Assembly: GCA_965215185.1 (NCBI GenBank)
Contig: OZ244034.1
Span: forward strand, 1,568,001 to 1,632,000
Source: Acidimicrobiia bacterium
GTDB lineage: Bacteria > Actinomycetota > Acidimicrobiia > Spongiisociales > ZC4RG35
Reading direction: 5' to 3'
Length of the DNA: 64,000 bases
Made by a program: the position numbers and the translations under genes. This document shows positions 2,145 to 53,751 of this stretch, one piece after another. The notes under the pieces were generated by a model. That model had not been told where the DNA came from. It worked only from the letters and a program-made list of their open reading frames with translations, and did not search any database. Position 1 is the first letter of the stretch, and each line of letters starts with the position of its first letter.

Positions 2145-3260
2145 TCAGTTGAGGGTGTGTAGTGGTTCGGTGTAGGGGAATCCCAGGGCGTCGGCGACTG
2201 CCGGCTGGGTGATCTGGCCCCGCCGCACATTCAGGCCGTCCTGCAGACCCCGGTCGGATCGGATCGCTTCGACTGTCCCCAGGTCGGCCAGCTTAAGCAC
2301 GTAAGGGAGTGTGGCGTCGTTGAGCGCCTGTGTGGAGGTGCGGGGCACGGCGCCAGGCATGTTGGCCACGCAATAGTGCACTACGTCGTCGACTATGTAG
2401 GTGGGATCAGCGTGGGTGGTGGGCCGCGAGGTCTCAGCGCAACCGCCCTGGTCGATGGCCACGTCCACGATCACCGAGCCAGGCCGCATCTGCCTGACCA
2501 TATGGGCCGTGATCAGGCGGGGCGCCCGGGCCCCAGGCAACAGGACTGCCCCTATCACCAGGTCGGCGGCCATCACGGCATGCTCCAAGGTGACAGGGCT
2601 GGAGTAGAGGGTGTGCACGGTCGGCCCGAACCGGGCGGCCAGCGATTCGAGCACGCCTGCGTCGCGGTCCAACACGGTCACATCAGCGCCGAGGCCGAGC
2701 GCCATCTTCACCGCGTTTCGGCCAACGACGCCTCCGCCAATCACAACGACCGGCGCCGCGGCCGCGCCGGGAATGCCACCTAGTAGCACACCGCGGCCGC
2801 CCACGGAGGCTTCGAGGCATCGAGCCCCGGCCTGCACAGACATCCTTCCCGCCACCTGCGACATAGGCGCCAGCAGCGGCAGCCGGCCCGCGCGGTCCGT
2901 CACCGACTCATATGCGATGGCAGTGACCCCGCTGTCGAGCAAATTGTGGGCCTGTTCGGGGTCGGGCGCGAGATGCAGGTAAGTGAACAGGGTGTGGTGG
3001 CTCCGTAGCCGGGCTCGCTCGACGCCGAGCGGCTCCTTGACCTTCACAACCAACTCAGCTGCCTCGAAGACTTCCTCCGCGGTGTCGAGCAGCCGCGCGC
3101 CTCGGGTCGCGTACTCCTCGTCGCTGAATCCCGCCCCCGTGCCAGCGTGGCGTTCCACGAACACCTCGTGGCCCCGGTTGGCTGCCTGTGCGGCACTCTC
3201 GGGCGTGAGCCCGACGCGGCGCTCCTCGGTCTTGATCTCCTTGGGCACACCTATTCGCAT
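2145..3260 (-). CDS. ald: Alanine dehydrogenase
   Basis: MRIGVPKEIK, VKVKEP, LFTYLHLA, GGGVVG, DVAIDQGG, HYCVANMPGAVP. Confidence 0.95.
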   Translation of the reverse strand: MRIGVPKEIKTEERRVGLTPESAAQAANRGHEVFVERHAGTGAGFSDEEYATRGARLLDTAEEVFEAAELVVKVKEPLGVERARLRSHHTLFTYLHLAPDPEQAHNLLDSGVTAIAYESVTDRAGRLPLLAPMSQVAGRMSVQAGARCLEASVGGRGVLLGGIPGAAAAPVVVIGGGVVGRNAVKMALGLGADVTVLDRDAGVLESLAARFGPTVHTLYSSPVTLEHAVMAADLVIGAVLLPGARAPRLITAHMVRQMRPGSVIVDVAIDQGGCAETSRPTTHADPTYIVDDVVHYCVANMPGAVPRTSTQALNDATLPYVLKLADLGTVEAIRSDRGLQDGLNVRRGQITQPAVADALGFPYTEPLHTLN

Positions 3261-45145: not shown

Positions 45146-46415
45146 TGAAGTTGTCCCGGTTTGGTGGACCATCACTCTGAGATTTGGGATTCTTATCCCG
45201 GAAGGAGTGTTTCATGTCGAAATCGAGAGCACCGTATGCGGTGGAGTACCGGGCGGAGATGGTTCGCCTGGTCAGAGCCGGTCGTAGTATCGAGGAACTG
45301 AGCCGGGAGTTCGAACCTTCCCATCAAACCATTCGCAACTGGGTCCGCCAGGCCGACATTGACGATGGCCAAAGGAATGGTTTGACCACCGCCGAACGGG
45401 AAGAGCTGGGTGGGCTGCGTCGGGAGAACCGGATTCTGCGTGAGGAAAAGGAGATCCTGGCAAAAGCAGCGGCCTGGTTCGCAGAGGAGACCGGATCGAC
45501 CCCGCGGAGGCGTTTGGGTTCGTGAAAGCAAACCAGGCTGTCTATTCGGTGCGGCGCATGTGCCAGTTGTTGGGTGTCACTCTCCCAGCGGCTACTACGC
45601 GTCGCTTTCCCGTCCCACCTCTGATCGGGTGAAGACCGACCGGACGCTGAGAGACCGGATAGTGGAGATCCATCACCGGTCACGGGGCACCTATGGCGCG
45701 CCTCGGGTACACGCCGAACTCGCCGCTGAGGATGTGCGGGTGGGTCGCAAAAGAGTGGCCCGTCTCATGCGTAAGGCCAATATCGAGAGTGTTCACCGCC
45801 GCCGGCGGATATCCACTACTCGCCGCGACCCGGCCAAACGGGCGGCGCCGGACCTAGCGAAGCGCCGGTTCCGCACCCAGGGACCTGACCGAATCTGGGC
45901 CGCCGACATCACCTATGTTCCCACCCAGGCCGGGTTCTTGTATCTGGCAGTGGTGATAGATCTATGGTCACGGAAAGTGGTGGGATGGTCCATGCGATCA
46001 GACCTCACCACCCCTTTGGTCACCGACGCGTTGGACATGGCTATCTCACAACGCAAAACCCAACGGAGTGCTTCTCCACTCGGACAGGGGCAGCCAATAT
46101 AGCTCAACCGCGTTCGGGAACCGATGCCAAGAAACCGGAATCGTACCCTCCATGGGACGCCGAGGAGACGCGTATGACAATGCCGTCGCCGAGTCGTTCT
46201 TCGCCACCCTCGAAACAGAACTCCTCGACCGCAACACCTACCACACCCGCACACAAGCACGCACCGCCGTCTTCGACTTCATAGAAGGCTTCTACAACCC
46301 CACCCGACGGCACTCCACCCTCGGGTACCAATCACCCACCAACTACGAAAGGAACCCCCCAAACACCCACTGAACCCTCAAACCGAAAACCGTCCACAAA
46401 AACGGGGCAACTCCA
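45146..46415 (+). mobile_element. IS3-family element (orfA 45214-45525, orfB frameshifted)
   Basis: IRs TGAAGTTGTCCCGGTTTGGTGGAC / TGGAGTTGCCCCGTTTTTGTGGAC; YGAPRV, WAADITY, HSDRGSQY, DNAVAESFF; no TSD seen. Confidence 0.88.
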
Positions 46416-46549
46416 AACAATGAAGCTACGGTCCTCCAGAGAAGGTAGATTCAAACTGGCTGATGCCGCTTGGTGCCGGTCACCTGTGAGTCTCGACTGG
46501 GCGTGGTTAGAGGCTTCGTGATGGGCGCGCCCGCCGATCTCCGACAAAG

Positions 46550-47230
46550 CTAACGCGGTACCGCCAGAGCGACCACGAGTGCGGCCACCGTCAGTAGACC
46601 GGGCACCAACACGAGCCTCGCTGGACGGAGTTCTGTGCGCCTCTTGTGTATACGCTCTATCACCCGGTCGGTGCGCTTGTCGGAGCGGAGCGCTGGCAGG
46701 CCGGCCAGCACCCCGAGAGTGACTCCTAGACCGTAGAGGAGTCCGTGGATTGGGTCGCCGTGTCCTGTCGCCACCAGGATCACGCCCAGCGCCGGTAGGG
46801 GTGTGGTCCTGACAGTCGACATGGGTAGGCCGGTGTCGAGGCCCCAGGCGAGTACGCCCAGTGGGCCCTTTAGGCGCCAGTCGTATGGGGTTTGCCGTAG
46901 TGGACCGAGGGAGGTAGACCGACCGGCCCAGAGACGTACAGAGTCGACTCCTAACAGCACCGTCGCTAACACCAGGGCAGCCAAGGTGGAGGAGTGTTCG
47001 CCAACCGTTCGCCTGACCCACACTCCGCCCGCGTGTACCGCCAGAAGGGAGAGCATTGATGAGGACAGCACGCCGAACGCATACACTCCGCTGTCGGTGA
47101 CTCTTCTAATGCCGCGGTTCGCCACGAAGGTCGGGCCGAACTGGCCCACGAAGGATATGCCTCATGGGCTGTAGCGCTGGAACCACCCACCTGCGCCTAA
47201 TACCGCCGCCGACAGCACCGACTCCAGCAA
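46550..47230 (-). CDS. MauF/CcdA-like membrane protein, probable selenoprotein (TGA at 47162-47164)
   Basis: Frame reads LLESVLSAAVLGAGGWFQRYSP*GISFVGQF, then TM helices, RQTP.DW and WGLDTG..MST; SECIS-like hairpin after TGA; exact start (47230 or 47218) uncertain. Confidence 0.65.
47126..47164 (-). promoter_or_regulatory. Putative bacterial SECIS element
   Basis: TGA-GGCATATCCTTCGT-GGGCC-AGTTC-GGCCC-GA-CCTTC: 5-bp GC stem, loop with G at position 2, loop 19 nt after UGA. Confidence 0.55.
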
Positions 47231-48232
47231 TCCTCAGCCCAACTTCGCCGCTCGAAGCCCGATGGTCGTCGAGGATGGCTTGCTCCACTCCAACGGCTCT
47301 CGGCCTGATACTGCCCGGTCTCCTGTCTCATTAAGCGTCACGTGGATGGCCTGAATTCCTTCACTATCGGCGGGCCGACGCCCTGCGCGTTGACGGCGCT
47401 GACCCGAACGAAGTGTTGAGTCCGGTAACAAAGTCGGATAGTGAAGACGCAGGAGATGTCCATTTCGAGGTCGAGGCCGGTGGTGAACTCGGGCTTGCTG
47501 TAGTCGCTTTCGTAGCCGCGACGCACACTGAGCCAATATCGGATGATTGGCGACGCTCCTTGGTCGGTGGGTGCCGACCATTCGAACTCTAAACTAGTAA
47601 GGTTGAAAACCGCATGGGCGAAGGGGATGCTAAGGTTGGCGGGCGGACCTGGAGCGTCGCCCGGTTCGCCGGTGGTTTCGGCGATTTCGCTGGAACCGTT
47701 GGCGTTGAGGGCGATTACTCGCACGGTGTATTTGGCGCCGTTGGTGAGCCCGGTGATTTCGTGGCTTCTGGATGTAGCGGTGGCCGTCGCTTGGCGGTCG
47801 GTTTCGCTGTATTCTTGGCCTGTGCCTTTCCACTGGATGCGGTATTCGGTTATTGGGGAGCCGCCGTTCCAGGGTGTGTCCCAGGCGAGGTGCAGGCCGC
47901 CGTCTATGGAAAAGACTCCGAAACCTAGGGGACGGCCAGGAATCGCAGCGGGTGTGCCTGATGTGTCAGCGGGGCTGCCCGACCCCCTGGCGTTGACAGC
48001 GATGATCCGCAGGTCGTAGGAGTCACCGTTGCGGAGAGGGCCGATGTACGCGAGCAGTTTTCCGCTCGCGGAAACTGTCACCCGCCGATGCGAGCACGCA
48101 GAGTCGTCGTAGTCTTCGCCCGCGCCTTTCCACAGCACCCGGTACTCCGATATTGGTGTGGAGCCTTCGTTGCTGGGCGACTGCCACCTGACCGCTAGAT
48201 TTTGGTTGCGGGCTGTGACGACCGGCGAGATC

Positions 48233-49369
48233 GGAGCGCCCGGACTCTCGGCTAGGAGCAGCGACCCGGTCACTGCAGGGCCGGTGCCGGTTGCGTTGAT
48301 CGCTGCGACGCTTACCGTGTACTCGTTGCCGATGGTAAGTCCGGTAATTTGGTGGCGCGGGTTGGTGACGGTGGCTCGGCGTTGGGTGTCGCTGAATTCT
48401 TCGCCGGTGTCTTTCCATTGCACTAGGTATCCGATCACGGGCGAGCCGTCGTCGGCGGGTTCGCCCCATGACACCAGCAGGTTTCCCATAGTGGAACGAA
48501 GGGTGAGGCTTGTGGGCGGTCCAGGAACTGTAAGGGGCACTCCCGTTTCTGAGGCCGGCGGTCCCGTGCCGGTGAGGTTCACGGCCCTTACTTGGACTGT
48601 GTAGGTGCTGCCGTTGTCCAGACTAGGGATCTGGTGGCGCGGGTTGGTGACGGTGGCTCGGCGTTGGGTGTCGCTGAATTCTTCGCCGGTGTCTTTCCAT
48701 TGCACTAGGTATCCGGTCACGGGCGAGCCGCCGTCGTCGGCGGGTGGCTGCCAGGTTACGGTGAGTTGCTGGTTGCCCGGTTCGATCATCATTTCGCGGG
48801 GAGCGCCCGGACTCTCGGCTAGGAGCAGCGACCCGGTCACTGCAGGGCCGGTGCCGGTTGCGTTGATCGCTGCGACGCTTACCGTGTACTCGTTGCCGAT
48901 GGTAAGTCCGGTAATTTGGTGGCGCGGGTTGGTGACGGTGGCTCGGCGTTGGGTGTCGCTGAATTCTTCGCCGGTGTCTTTCCATTGCACTAGGTATCCG
49001 ATCACGGGCGAGCCGTCGGCGGCGGGTTCGCCCCATGACACCAGCAGGTTTCCCATAGTGGAACGAAGGGTGAGGCTTGTGGGCGGTCCAGGAACTGTAA
49101 GGGGCACTCCCGTTTCTGAGGCCGGCGGTCCCGTGCCGGTGAGGTTCACGGCCCTTACTTGGACTGTGTAGGTGCTGCCGTTGTCCAGACTAGGGATCTG
49201 GTGGCGCGGGTTGGTGACGGTGGCTCGGCGTTGGGTGTCGCTGAATTCTTCGCTGGTGTCTTTCCATTGCACTAGGTATCCGATCACGGGCGAGCCGCCG
49301 TCGTCGGCGGGTGGCTGCCAGGTTACGGTGAGTTGCTGGTTGCCCGGTTCGATCATCATTTCGCGGGGA
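48233..49369. repeat. Near-perfect 567-bp tandem duplication (two FN3 domains)
   Basis: GGAGCGCCCGGACTCTCGG at 48233 and 48800; TCGCGGGG at 48794 and 49361; only a few substitutions. Confidence 0.92.
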
Positions 49370-49705
49370 ACGCCCGGTGCCGCCGCGGGTGTGGCTGATG
49401 CGGGTGGAGTTGACCATGGCCCCTCGCCCACATCGTTGATTGCCCTAACACGTACATAGTATTCCGTGCCGTTGTCAAGACTCCCGATCCGACGGTTGAG
49501 AACCTCACCGGCGACTGTCACGCTCGGGTCTGATTCCGAAAGCTGGTTATCGCCGGAACGCCATTGGAGCCGGTAGTCGGTTATTGGCCGTCTCCCGTCG
49601 TCGCCTGGTGCTTTCCACGACACTTGCAGGGCCCTGTCATGTACCAGCAGTTTGAGGTCGGTAGGAGCGCCGGGTTCGGTCGGTGTCCTAACCCGTGTCC
49701 TATTG

Positions 49706-49818
49706 CCACCACCACCCGAGCCACCACCACCCGAGCCACCACCACCCGAGCCACCACCACCCGAGCCACCACCACCCAGCCACCACCACCCGAGCCACCA
49801 CCACCCGAGCCACCACCC
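49706..49818. repeat. 15-bp tandem repeat (CCACCACCACCCGAG)x7 encoding GGGGS
   Basis: Seven units plus a partial; the fifth unit (49766-49779) lacks one G. Confidence 0.95.
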
Positions 49819-50637
49819 GCTCCCGCTCCGGTGCTTTGGTCGGCGCTGTTGTCCTCGGTCGGACATACCCCTCCGAAAGAGACGAAAGCTCGTTGCAGGA
49901 AGCTAGCCATCTGCGCACGCGTCACCGGTTCCTCGGGACAGAACCTCGCCGGGTTCACCGCACAACCCCGGGTGAGGCCCGTTTCAGCCAACGCCTGAAT
50001 GGCGTCGGTATGCACACTCTGGCCCACATCAACAAAAAACAAGGCCGACCCCGAAGCGACCAACCTGAACGCTCGTTGCAGGAAGCTAGCCATCTGCGCA
50101 CGCGTCACCGGTTCCTCGGGACAATACCTCGCCGGGTTCACCGCACAACCCCGGGTGATCCCCAAGTCTGCTATGCGCTCCACATACGGCAACCACCAAA
50201 CCCCATCCTCCACATCAACGAATCGCGACTGCGTTACCCCCAACTGGCCGTCGCCGGGCACGCCATCCCGAGGTTCGATGCTGTCGAGCACGCGCACCGT
50301 CCAAACGGCCATAGTCCAGCGCAGCACCGGTTCACTCGGACAGAAAAGGCCCTCGCCGCACTCGGTGCCGTCAAACACCCCCAACCGCGCCAGCTTCATC
50401 ACCGCCTCCGAATGCACCCCAGCATCGTCCTCAAAGTCCGCCTGAACAGTCTCAGGACCAATCGCCACTGCCGTAGCTAGCAGGGCCAACACGACCACAA
50501 CCCTCAAGGTCGCCACCCCATCCCGTACCCGAGGCCGAGTTGGGCGCTAGCCGCATCGCCTTGGAGGTCCGAGTGTTCCATCCGAAGTCTGGAAAGCCAC
50601 CGGTTCAGACGGCGACCGCACCGGGATGCCGTAGCTA

Positions 50638-50949
50638 TCAGGAGCAGCATCCGACCTGGTAGGAACACATCGTTATATTGGAAAAGCAGTCATCCCCTGT
50701 AGAGCACTCGCAGCACATGCAACGGCCGTTATTGCAGGCCCAGCACCTGATGTTCTGGTTCTGCTCGGCACATAGAAGCGGGCACCAAGGATTGTTTTCG
50801 GACTGCAGGAGGCAGCAACTGGAGCTCTGGGCCAACGCAGGCGAAGCTCCCAACAACGCCTGAGTTCCCGTCGCCACAACGGCCAGAGCCGCTCCAGTCA
50901 CCGTACGCAAGAACCACCTGCGGCTTCGCGGCGCCATCCCAATCGTCAT
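50638..50949 (-). CDS. Tat-exported cysteine-rich mini-protein (14 Cys in ~63-aa mature part)
   Basis: SRRWFLR twin-arginine motif, ALA cleavage site, CC..C..C..C..C..C.CC.C..C..C..CC pattern; ATGA overlap with the upstream gene. Confidence 0.85.
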   Translation of the reverse strand: MTIGMAPRSRRWFLRTVTGAALAVVATGTQALLGASPALAQSSSCCLLQSENNPWCPLLCAEQNQNIRCWACNNGRCMCCECSTGDDCFSNITMCSYQVGCCS

Positions 50950-51341
50950 GCCTGCTGAGACCTCGCTGCAGGTTCCGGCCCGTGAGGCAGCGGACGGGTG
51001 TCAATACGCATCTGTGTCAGGAAGCGAAACTCTCCACTCCACCGGTTCCTTGTCCACCACTCGACGCGGCGCTGCAGCCGGATGGTGTGAACCACCGACG
51101 GGACCGTTCGCCACTCACCATTCACCAACTCGATCCCAGTCTCGTCTCCTGGCTGGAACTGGAATCCCTCCGGGTAGCCCTGGTATCTGGCCCGGACGGT
51201 CCCGCCAGTGCGGTCGCTCTCCACCCACACGGCACCCGCGCCGGCATCGGACTTGTAGGTACCCAACTCAACTCCATCCTCCGGAGGTTCATAAACGTGG
51301 GCGGGGTCGGAATCGGGTGTTTGGGGAAGGTGGTCGCTCAT
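50946..51341 (-). CDS. Hypothetical protein in the mau-like cluster
   Basis: GAGGAG upstream; stop overlaps the peptide start; no family recognised. Confidence 0.65.
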   Translation of the reverse strand: MSDHLPQTPDSDPAHVYEPPEDGVELGTYKSDAGAGAVWVESDRTGGTVRARYQGYPEGFQFQPGDETGIELVNGEWRTVPSVVHTIRLQRRVEWWTRNRWSGEFRFLTQMRIDTRPLPHGPEPAARSQQA

Positions 51342-51355
51342 CCGGTTTCATCTCC

Positions 51356-51991
51356 TCACTGCTCTAGGTCCACCCCGGATGACCCCAGACGTTGTCCCTG
51401 GGCTATAGGGGTTGTCGGGTCCGCGGTCGCATCCATTTTCGGCTTACGGAAGGGCCCTGGTGCCATCTCAAAGGCCGCAAGGCGCCCGGTCAGTAGATCA
51501 TTAAGCGCACGCCGACCCCCGATACCAGCACCGAATGCGATCCGGCCCCCTAAGACACCCACCGCGGACGGGCTTGACGAAACGCCCAGTCCCTTGACGA
51601 TCGACATGTCATCGTCGAACACCAACTCTTCCAGGGGGAGCCCCTGAGCTACCGCCCACTTACGCATCCGCACCGGGTCGGCAGCGGTCACCACGATAGA
51701 TACACCGTCCGGTATCAAGCCATCGAAGGAACGAACCAGCCGCTCGCAGGCACTGCAGACGGGGGAGATCACCAACACCACATGCACCGAAACCCCGTCG
51801 ATGTGCTCAGGCAACCCATTAGAACTGGCCAGAGAGCCGACCGCATCGGGCGCCAGGTCGAACTCCTCGAACAAATCCTCGGCCGGGTTCCTCGACCCCG
51901 CCCGCTCAGCCAACAACTCCATCACCGCCAACGCGACCAGCCCACACAGAACTAGTGCCACGACGGCAATTACCAACGCAGCGACTACCAC
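51356..51991 (-). CDS. MauD-like membrane-anchored thioredoxin-fold protein
   Basis: N-terminal TM helix, ISPVCSAC (CxxC), LGVSSSPSAV cis-Pro loop; GTG start overlaps the MauE-like stop. Confidence 0.8.
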   Translation of the reverse strand: MVVAALVIAVVALVLCGLVALAVMELLAERAGSRNPAEDLFEEFDLAPDAVGSLASSNGLPEHIDGVSVHVVLVISPVCSACERLVRSFDGLIPDGVSIVVTAADPVRMRKWAVAQGLPLEELVFDDDMSIVKGLGVSSSPSAVGVLGGRIAFGAGIGGRRALNDLLTGRLAAFEMAPGPFRKPKMDATADPTTPIAQGQRLGSSGVDLEQ

Positions 51992-52578
51992 ACAGACGCC
52001 TCTGGATCCGAAGCCCGAGCCGCGAACGGGTGGGCGAAAACAGTGCGTCGGTGAAAAGCGATCGTGTGCACCCTTCGCCAGAGCCGCGTAACCACCAACG
52101 TAGTGGACAGCACGGCGCAACATGCGAGCATGAACAACCCCACCTCCGGCCGGGTCCCCTCGCCGAACAACGATTGGTCTTGTGCCACACCCCACGCAGC
52201 TGCCACCCACAACGGCAACTGGAGAATCTGCGGCCACCCAAGAGCTCGGTCCGACCGACCGAAACAGGCGCAAGACACCTTGCTGGTGCTGGCAATCCCG
52301 ACAACGCCCACGACAGCCAGACCAACCGCGAACAACAACAAAGCAAGGGCCGCCGCCGCGGACCGCTCAATCACGATCACCCAAGCCAGAACGACCTCGA
52401 ACACACCAAGTAGCCGCCCGCTGAACTGCCACCCAGACCCGCGAGGCCGCCAGCCAATGGCCTGCCACAGCTCGGCCAACGTCTCCGCAACCGGCGCGGG
52501 CTGAACTATCTTGGCCGAACCCGCCACCAATAAAACCGTCGCCGCTCCCATCACCATCAGATCGGCCGCACCTGTCAT
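51985..52578 (-). CDS. MauE/DoxX-family membrane protein
   Basis: LLVAGSAKI, LGVFEVVL, SCACFG (CxCFG); GGAGGAGG RBS before ATG 52578. Confidence 0.85.
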   Translation of the reverse strand: MTGAADLMVMGAATVLLVAGSAKIVQPAPVAETLAELWQAIGWRPRGSGWQFSGRLLGVFEVVLAWVIVIERSAAAALALLLFAVGLAVVGVVGIASTSKVSCACFGRSDRALGWPQILQLPLWVAAAWGVAQDQSLFGEGTRPEVGLFMLACCAVLSTTLVVTRLWRRVHTIAFHRRTVFAHPFAARASDPEASVW

Positions 52579-53751
52579 CAGCGCCTCCTCCCGCAATGCC
52601 CCTCAGGTTCGAACACAACGGCAATACGTGCCGGAGCGGTAGCCGTTTTCACCACCACCAACCCAACTTCCCCAGCACCGAGGTGGCCCGGCTACAATCC
52701 ACGGCAGTCTGCAACAACCCCACAGCCACCACGGAGAATCAACCCCTAACGTTGTGCGTTTGTCCCGCTGCCAACCGGCGGTTGTGCGTTGATTCGAACA
52801 GTCCTTCACTCCCTTTGCAGTGCTTTGACAGTGTAAGGACCTTTTCTGGCACAATAGATGTGTAGAAACGTGTCGCCTGTAAGGTTATGCGTGTCATGAG
52901 TGTGGTTAGGCAGAAAATCAGCACCATCAACCAAAAAACCCACCAAACAACCTGACCGATCCTCCACGATCTGCCGAGAACCTCCCCCACCCAACAGCAG
53001 AAAGAAGGCCAGACCCCAACTGCCATGGAGAACCAACAAAGAGCGCGACTAGCAATCGAGCAGGACACGGTCGAAAACCCAAGAGCCGTGTTGCTTGAGT
53101 CAGGCCCAGTGATTTCCGGTAGGTGGCCATAATCCCCGCAGAGAAAGAGCCATTGCGCGTTGATTTGAACGAGGGTGGTTGTGGGCAACGCGGGCGGGGG
53201 TCGGATTGGATGCGTAACGGCGAATGCGCTAGGCGCTATCGGCCGAGGCGGGCTGGCTAGCTCGGTCGGGTTACCGTAGCGCATAGGTAGGCACCGGCCT
53301 CTGATGTCCTTGTTGCCAACTCAAGGTATCTCTTTGAATTCGGGAATGTTCGGATCGAGACCGTGGGCCCGCAAGGATGAAATCTCGAAGAGTTGTCGTT
53401 GCAAGATATGGAAACGAGACCGTCGCTGGTTTCGATTAGTAGTGAGGAGGCGGTTTCCCAGGCCGTTACCGGCTTGCCCTCGTAACGGACTAGATCATGA
53501 ACTTTCTTCGCGATTCGGCGACCGCCAACGTTTCGATGCAAACGTGCAGCCACGATCCGACCCCCTAGAAGGGCGATCAGACGCTGCCGAGAGAACAGGA
53601 CGTAGTCGGGACTTTCCTTGAGGAAGGGTGAGCCCGAACCGTCGTTCGATGCGCTCACCTCAGTTGGCTCGACGTCGACAAGAACCTTGTTCGGAGCGCC
53701 GCTGACCGAAGAATTGGTGTCTTCCCGTTGGCCTTCTAGGTGAGCTCCTAT

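Follow-up and report, generated by a model that had tools for sequence, protein, structure and literature searches.

Does the TGA codon at 47164-47162 end a reading frame, or does it encode an amino acid within one? This question is raised by a locus on the minus strand of a 64,000-nucleotide stretch of an Acidimicrobiia genome (contig OZ244034.1; here called the window), whose source assembly consists of one contig of 3.12 Mb and is 95% complete. The open reading frame (ORF) called with translation table 11 (46550-47149, GTG start, 199 aa) extends upstream in frame past this TGA and reads MLESVLSAAVLGAGGWFQRYSP over 22 codons, then TGA, and then GISFVGQFGPT. On the sequence evidence described below, we are very confident that the UGA is decoded as selenocysteine (Sec) and that the gene is genuine but unannotated. 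It is also highly probable that 46550-47230 forms one gene for a polytopic membrane selenoprotein of an unnamed family related to MauF, a membrane protein that assists the maturation of methylamine dehydrogenase. An initial annotation of this DNA had described the in-frame TGA and the upstream extension of the ORF from 47149, and the sequence is as described. No Cys is encoded anywhere in the full 226-codon reading, which bears out what the same annotation had said of the translated frame, and the tryptic peptide across residue 23 of the predicted protein is YSP-U-GISFVGQFGPTFVANR. The FN3 gene located 100 nt upstream also terminates in TGA (47340-47338), which together with the TGA preceding the predicted start codon (47236-47234) indicates that TGA is otherwise a stop in this genome. 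The coordinates of all features are given in Table 1.

Of the 16 congeneric genomes, three carry the gene, with identities of 99%, 74%, and 62%, and each match contained one TGA. A scan with one genome per species yielded 13 loci, of which 12 belong to Acidimicrobiia metagenome-assembled genomes (MAGs) and one to an Acidobacteriota genome (40% identity); several of the matching MAG records bear sponge-associated taxon names. In all 13 loci, the TGA is located at the identical column within the motif ..Q(R/L)(Y/H/F)SP-TGA-G(I/V/L/T)(S/A)F(V/L)GQ.., and length and frame of the gene were equal in 13 genome loci. A metagenome scan with a 10-row alignment gave only two loci, one of which (L037) has the TGA at the same column too. 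In a sample of 401 genomes of the class, we also detected a distant second subfamily of five members with the motif ..(S/H)WSP-TGA-GESML... Altogether, every one of the 20 readable loci has the TGA at this column, including the second subfamily and loci with an identity as low as about 40%. This count comprises the window, L024-L037, and L057-L061; L056 (G236), whose N-terminus is unreadable, and the second metagenome locus L038, which ends short of the TGA site, were left out. In the Acidobacteriota locus (L036:2956-6552), the Sec membrane domain, whose TGA is at position 3016, continues into a fused region of at least 960 residues with seven CarboxypepD_reg repeats (303 bits); the frame is still open at the edge of the locus.

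The sequence upstream of the TGA behaves as coding sequence of the same gene. The reading frame is unbroken across the TGA, without indels, in 20/20 loci, and a start codon occurs 20-23 codons upstream of the TGA in all 12 loci checked (ATG in eight of them), preceded in five loci by a stop within four codons. The ratio of nonsynonymous to synonymous polymorphism (pN/pS), pooled over 78 pairs, was 0.51 upstream of the TGA versus 0.58 in the rest of the gene, and up to five synonymous codons are in use at conserved upstream residues. The conservation of the upstream frame, on which the initial annotation had made its reading depend, is thus clearly seen. The G-I/V-S-F codons that separate the TGA from the supposed table-11 start are conserved at the protein level. 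In locus L032, the window's table-11 start codon is replaced by GTC and the next start is found only 33 codons further on, which argues against two separate genes. In addition, independent DNA contigs from two other studies (X5 and X6) span the site with three and five differences elsewhere and none at the TGA.

The genome encodes the machinery for Sec incorporation. We found selA (405 bits) with an adjacent selB (310 bits), a tRNA-Sec (78 bits) for which ARAGORN gave the anticodon tca, and a selD (locus L002, G000:C1:1864217-1865137) that itself encodes a selenoprotein, with one TGA at a GAG-U-GCK site. The genes selA, selB, selC, and selD, for which the initial annotation had advised a check, are therefore all present, and selA was above the cut-off in all nine other carrier genomes tested. 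The UGA of selD is followed by two hairpins in a layout similar to that of the MauF-like gene.

A hairpin, GGGCC-AGTTC-GGCCC, had been pointed out downstream of the TGA; it is present, with 19 nt between the TGA and the loop. The bSECISearch model of the bacterial selenocysteine insertion sequence (SECIS) expects an apical loop 16-37 nt from the UGA and a G among the first two loop bases, and the AGUUC loop fits this geometry. RNAalifold analysis of 13 close relatives resulted in a stem of seven pairs that has a single bulge and is capped by the AGUUC loop, and every pair is retained in 11-13 of the 13 sequences; the changes in the stem are three G-U replacements and a few mismatches, one-sided only. 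Codon entropy is 0.77 and 1.04 at the two Gly codons within the stem, compared to 0.47-1.96 (median about 1.7) at 19 conserved Gly codons outside it, and the bulge, which is the third base of a Pro codon, is freely variable (entropy 1.58). The distant subfamily has other hairpins at a similar distance, namely GAUGCU-N4-AGCAUC and CCCGCUC-GGN-GAGCGGG; in the latter, the loop follows the UGA by 34 nt. An additional pairing of GAGG across the codon with a downstream CCTT, also proposed initially, does occur in the minimum free energy (MFE) fold of the window, but CCUU is found in only eight of 13 relatives and the pairing is absent from the RNAalifold consensus. Taking the comparative data together, the hairpin likely works as a SECIS that directs Sec insertion. 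As a side aspect, two further contigs of run X5, from other organisms, match only 47127-47179 (53 bases that comprise the TGA and the hairpin) at 90% identity or more, as would be expected if the recoding site were conserved among relatives at the nucleotide level.

As a reference for MauF, we used WP_011750949.1 from the mau cluster (mauFBEDA...) on plasmid 1 of Paracoccus denitrificans PD1222, which was located with the MauE model. The relation between the two families is not detected by HMMER and BLAST. With hhalign, the family alignment matched the single MauF sequence with a probability of 74.8% (E 2.6e-5) and an alignment of 18 MauF proteins with a probability of 91.2% (E 1e-6) over 143 columns at about 25% identity. 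In this alignment, Sec23 falls on Cys79, the sole invariant Cys of the MauF alignment; GGWFQRYSP-U-GISF is aligned on the invariant MauF GGLLSTWSPCGYSS, RQTPYDWR on RAQVPHDAR, and TVRTTPLP on TYVQTPLLY. Homologues had been expected to have TGA or Cys at this column, and this is what was found, with TGA in 20/20 loci and a single invariant Cys in the MauF proteins. Neither a lack of Sec machinery, nor homologues with a residue other than Cys, nor an unconserved upstream frame, each of which the initial annotation had named as fatal to its reading, was encountered. In the members of the second subfamily (L057-L061, in G308, G019, G331, G089, and G319), the WSP-U-G motif is even nearer to the WSPCG of MauF. 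MauF itself matched five CcdA proteins of the same order with a probability of 85.7% (E 5.5e-6, 202 columns), with Cys79 aligned on the SPC of the first transmembrane helix (TM1) and a Leu at the second CcdA Cys (WTPC, TM4). The absence of the second CcdA Cys shows that this is not a canonical two-Cys CcdA/DsbD protein. Judged by these alignments, the family is best described as an offshoot of the CcdA superfamily that is MauF-like and has a single redox residue. A scan of the genome with PF13386 gave no match, and tblastn searches of plasmids with the selenoprotein and with the MauE-like protein encoded nearby were also negative. Loci of the unpublished genome G039 were set aside and support none of the conclusions.

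AlphaFold2 (AF2), supplied with a 56-row alignment, generated an all-helical membrane model with a mean predicted local distance difference test score (pLDDT) of 94.1 and a predicted template modelling score of 0.90. In the model, a helix at residues 2-20 is followed by a break at residue 21 and a helix at 22-37, so that Sec23 opens the second helical segment, and the N-terminal helix is packed (pLDDT 95). The AF2 model of MauF (pLDDT 82.5) has a helix-break-helix arrangement at the SPC, with the break at residue 77, and an extra N-terminal helix; a Foldseek search with this model gave CcdA 5VKV as the best row, at a non-significant E of 0.14. Across the wider family, the residues R112, Q113, W129, G130, D132, G134, T139, R141, and Y166 are invariant. 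A sequence profile search of the PDB gave no matches at E <= 10, and the Protein Atlas, searched with the table-11 ORF, yielded unnamed clusters from actinobacteria and, as a weak lead, DsbD_2 (0.80-0.94).

The initial annotation had foreseen that gene callers would truncate a gene of this kind, and the databases agree with this. Homologues form 34 clusters at 90% identity, and the 18 entries that were read individually all begin 2-5 residues after the TGA, 16 of them with MGQFGP and two with MSF(V/L)GQFGP. An exhaustive HMMER search of 1.84 billion representatives gave 79 matches, of which 18 were read, and none of the 79 aligns to query residues 1-25. These data together indicate that the family is truncated throughout. 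No Cys-containing full-length member was found among the 18 entries read and the 79 representatives, and a second homologue search using the alignment gave no named or Cys-containing relatives. One database entry, P0035 (272 aa), starts like the gene and switches to a different reading frame of this DNA beyond residue 61; it represents a frameshifted gene call from a nearly identical contig.

The selenoprotein gene is the last gene of an operon that begins with a gene for a MauE-like membrane protein (Table 1). The CxCF motif of the latter is the same as in P. denitrificans MauE, where the accompanying MauD has CPVC. The thioredoxin-like CxxC protein encoded next is weakly MauD-like, as an hhalign comparison to P. 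denitrificans MauD gave a probability of 16% (E 0.0016) with the CxxC motifs in register; its L037 orthologue has a weak Thioredoxin_2 match (E 0.035). The Cys-rich protein is not a homologue of MauA (hhalign probability 0.2%). Its alignment A8 contains CC, CxC, and CCEC groups and a conserved Trp in RCW(T/S/A)C. When ORFs of at least 90 aa in the flanks of 14 loci were clustered, the CxxC protein was found at 12 loci, the FN3 protein at 11, the Cys-rich and the 131-aa proteins at nine each, and the MauE-like protein at at least six; the window's own copies lie beyond the flank and were found separately. Searches of the 95%-complete genome for the heavy and light chains of methylamine dehydrogenase (PF06433, PF02975) gave no match, whereas both were found in the P. 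denitrificans control, which indicates that the helper set serves another client here.

Table 1. Features of the selenoprotein locus and its operon (positions refer to the window).
Feature	Position	Strand	Remarks
MauE-like membrane protein, CxC motif SCACF, first in cluster	51985..52596	minus	PF07291 41.9 bits (cut-off 27)
Membrane-anchored thioredoxin-like CxxC protein (SPVCSAC), MauD-like	about 51356..51958	minus	tblastn; approximate start
Conserved 131-aa protein	50946..51341	minus	orthologues in 9/13 other loci; no Pfam match
Cys-rich 103-aa protein with twin-arginine translocation (Tat) signal (SRRWFLR), 13 invariant Cys, presumed client	50638..50949	minus	no Pfam match
SLH-domain ORF, wall-associated	49581-50516	minus	PF00395 50.6 bits
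7xFN3 ORF, wall-associated, directly upstream of the selenoprotein gene	47338-49866	minus	PF00041 322 bits
In-frame TGA stop, two codons before the TTG start	47234..47236	minus	bounds the N-terminus
Predicted start codon	TTG 47230-47228, or possibly GTG 47218	minus	
Full-length selenoprotein gene (predicted), 226 codons	46550..47230	minus	Sec = codon 23; TAG stop 46552-46550
N-terminal 22 codons, hydrophobic helix 1	47165..47230	minus	lost by table-11 gene calling
In-frame UGA, predicted Sec23, motif YSP-U-GISF	47162..47164	minus	column-conserved TGA
SECIS-like hairpin GUGGGCC/AGUUC/GGCCC(G)AC	47130..47149	minus	conserved in 13/13 close relatives
Hairpin core GGGCC (47147-47143)/AGUUC (47142-47138)/GGCCC (47137-47133)	47133-47147	minus	loop 19 nt past UGA

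Some features next to the gene are irregular. At 49581-49866 (minus strand), the SLH and FN3 ORFs overlap in different frames; one frame of the shared stretch encodes (GGGGS)n, and the others encode WWLG/VVAR repeats. The arrangement resembles a single SLH-linker-FN3 wall protein that was split by a frameshift in a short tandem repeat, due to either an assembly error or real slippage. Downstream of the gene, overlapping transposase-like ORFs are found on the plus strand (45184-45525 and about 45410-46373), named from their translation alone. The match between the window and contigs of three other runs ends at 46416 in each case, so the insertion (45184-46416) seems specific to this genome.

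How could the protein function? The view of the initial annotation that it is a Sec-containing membrane redox protein is supported by the conserved TGA, the Sec machinery, and the alignment on MauF Cys79, and from these we infer the redox role as a thiol/selenol relay. SelA, SelB, SelD, and tRNA-Sec would decode the UGA, and the hairpin at 47130-47149 would most likely direct the insertion, with Sec replacing the single invariant TM1 Cys of the SPC motif. In CcdA, the TM1 residue sits inside the membrane where a proline breaks the helix, and it carries out thiol-disulfide exchange. By homology, Sec23 would be expected to lie at such a break in the membrane and to undergo this exchange. The selenol would then react with Cys residues of the MauD-like CxxC protein and/or the MauE-like CxC protein and, as there is only a single redox residue, the oxidized form would have to be an intermolecular Se-S bond. 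Reducing equivalents that cross the membrane in this way could serve the correct pairing or re-shuffling of the 13-plus Cys residues in the Tat-exported client. As to the direction of electron flow, we slightly favor that reductant is passed outward to the MauD-like thioredoxin for disulfide correction in the client. A more specific picture, in which an obligately Sec-containing branch of the CcdA superfamily provides the membrane nucleophile of a MauF-like Sec/MauE-like CxC/MauD-like CxxC relay dedicated to an SLH/FN3-linked Cys-rich client, is put forward tentatively and is rather less likely than not.

Several points weigh against the interpretation as a Sec-dependent MauF relative and have to be considered. 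Sec incorporation and translation past the UGA are predicted here from sequence, and the two metatranscriptome contigs span only 46416-46706, outside the TGA region. As 142 of 201 genomes in the class have selA, its co-occurrence with the gene says little. The single-sequence fold of the hairpin (MFE -13.5 kcal/mol) is unremarkable, with z = 0.14 and 105 of 200 shuffles at least as stable, an Rfam scan of the hairpin gave no matching family, and compensatory double-sided changes were absent from the stem across the 13 aligned relatives. The stem also codes for the conserved FVGQFGP, which makes nucleotide conservation alone ambiguous. The signal beyond chance thus comes from the comparative evidence, namely the TGA column, the stem retention, the synonymous constraint, and the unchanged TGA in the contigs of two other studies, and not from the single-sequence fold. 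In alignment A4, three rows carry a spurious terminal C, where a true TGA stop had been read as C. The full-length protein matched no Pfam or NCBIfam family at E <= 1. Foldseek with the AF2 model gave nothing at E <= 0.001, CcdA 5VKV being at rank 4 with E 0.4, and the best VIA-align rows (NarK, Z 5.7; NqrE, Z 5.6; RnfA, Z 5.4) were all below Z 6 and within background. The link to MauF is one profile-profile match of moderate strength. The initial label "CcdA/DsbD-type" can be kept via MauF, through the two consecutive matches (91%, then 86%). It is not sustained directly, as hhalign of the selenoprotein family versus CcdA gave a probability of 0.9%, though with SP-U and SPC in register, a Pfam scan of 56 members gave scattered chance matches only with the DsbD models at 0/56, and the second Cys is missing. 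Finally, a CcdA-type cycle would be inoperable with a single redox residue, and the relay mechanism is a conjecture.

Other explanations of the TGA have to account for the same data. If it were a true stop, a 22-codon mini-ORF would precede a separate 199-codon gene starting from GTG 47149. This is the form given by table-11 calling and by every database entry inspected, and most members do have a GTG or ATG 2-5 codons past the TGA. We nevertheless regard it as highly improbable, as it leaves unexplained the single indel-free frame of all 20 loci, the protein-level conservation of G-I/V-S-F, the lack of a start over 33 codons in L032, the packing of the N-terminal helix in the AF2 model, and the fact that the region is contiguous in MauF with a Cys at the TGA column. 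Read-through without Sec, by near-cognate insertion of Trp, Cys, or Arg or by another programmed mechanism, would be compatible with a recoding that is read from sequence and with a statistically undistinguished hairpin. It appears very improbable in a genome that has a complete Sec system and a selenoprotein SelD, with selA in all nine other carriers; moreover, the homologous MauF residue is an invariant Cys, which makes a classic Sec/Cys pair, and a hairpin is found at SECIS distance in both subfamilies despite differing sequences. A pseudogene, a nonsense mutation, or an assembly error could be suspected from the transposase immediately downstream and the frameshifted appearance of the neighboring SLH/FN3 gene. 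This was rejected and its probability is practically negligible, as the same TGA occurs in 20 loci of different species and assemblies and in the contigs of two other studies, with purifying selection on both sides of it.

With Sec accepted as the preferred reading, its chemical role may still be viewed differently. The protein could act on the oxidizing side, where it would pass electrons from the CxxC protein to quinone together with the DoxX/MauE-like protein, as in DsbB/VKOR. The 13 invariant Cys residues of the client must be oxidized, RefSeq naming places MauE in the MauE/DoxX family, DoxX relatives are quinone-linked, and the single redox residue differs from CcdA. We consider this unlikely, as CcdA, to which the only detectable homology points, imports reductant, and the CxxC partner resembles MauD/TlpA-type proteins, which are kept reduced by CcdA/DsbD; structure searches also gave no quinone-site similarity. 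Alternatively, Sec23 could be a membrane ligand for a soft metal such as Cu or Hg, and the Cys-rich protein handled by the operon would then bind metal. A MerT-like protein and a Cu/Zn efflux transporter are among the published selenoproteins of the membrane (PMC13188914), and the close subfamily has conserved histidines in TGH....HG. Conservation of these histidines does not extend to the wider family, the partner proteins (thioredoxin-like CxxC and MauE) suggest thiol-disulfide chemistry, and no metal-transporter family was matched, so that a metal ligand appears improbable.

A review of May 2026 lists 119 prokaryotic selenoprotein families in its Table 1, among them membrane families such as the NqrE-type PF02508, the MerT-like PF02411, the TsoB rhodanese/DsbD fusion NF045694, and the SO_0444 transporter NF033936 (PMC13188914). 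A MauF-, CcdA-, or SPUG-type family is not among these 119. Term searches in the texts of this review, of the deep-Sep paper, and of the 2022 preprint "Eight unexpected selenoprotein families" did not reveal the family either. Literature searches on MauE/MauF and selenocysteine, on selenoproteins and CcdA, and on Acidimicrobiia and selenocysteine gave nothing on the family. We conclude that this is a new selenoprotein family related to MauF, with a function that is deduced from homology and context. It adds a membrane family to the published 119, one whose active-site helix is lost by annotation pipelines, and it documents selenium dependence in uncultured Acidimicrobiia. To our knowledge, MauF has been known since the 1990s to be genetically required and has remained mechanistically unexplained. 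The Sec/Cys correspondence marks the invariant Cys of MauF as a functional, redox-active residue, and the Sec form is a natural high-reactivity variant that could be used for trapping MauF partners. The operon further indicates that MauE, MauD, and MauF form a portable helper module with clients beyond methylamine dehydrogenase. If the relay holds true, the role of MauF, MauE, and MauD in methylamine dehydrogenase maturation would be an intermolecular Se-S/S-S exchange within the membrane.

The relation to known systems can be summarized as follows. Published selenoprotein families share with the MauF-like protein the UGA recoding, the SelABCD-positive host, a Sec at the position of a redox or metal-binding Cys, and the truncation in databases, but in the Pfam and NCBIfam scans none of their models matched the protein. 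CcdA/DsbD proteins (PF02683, PF13386; 5VKV) resemble it in the SP-C/U of the first TM helix and in a nearby gene for a thioredoxin-like CxxC partner, some databases name MauF homologues CcdA, and one of the 120 listed carries PF13386. The TM4 Cys column, however, is occupied by Leu in both the selenoprotein family and MauF, which makes a CcdA-type intramolecular disulfide cycle impossible. The closest counterpart is MauF, with which the family has in common the motif GG(L/W)xxx(W/Y)SP[C/U]G(Y/I)S(S/F), the helix break at SP[C/U] in the AF2 models, the location beside mauE-like and mauD-like genes, and the lack of a Pfam or NCBIfam model of its own. MauF differs in that it has an N-terminal extension of about 55 residues (helix 29-51), which is missing from the selenoprotein, and a Cys at the position where the selenoprotein family has Sec.

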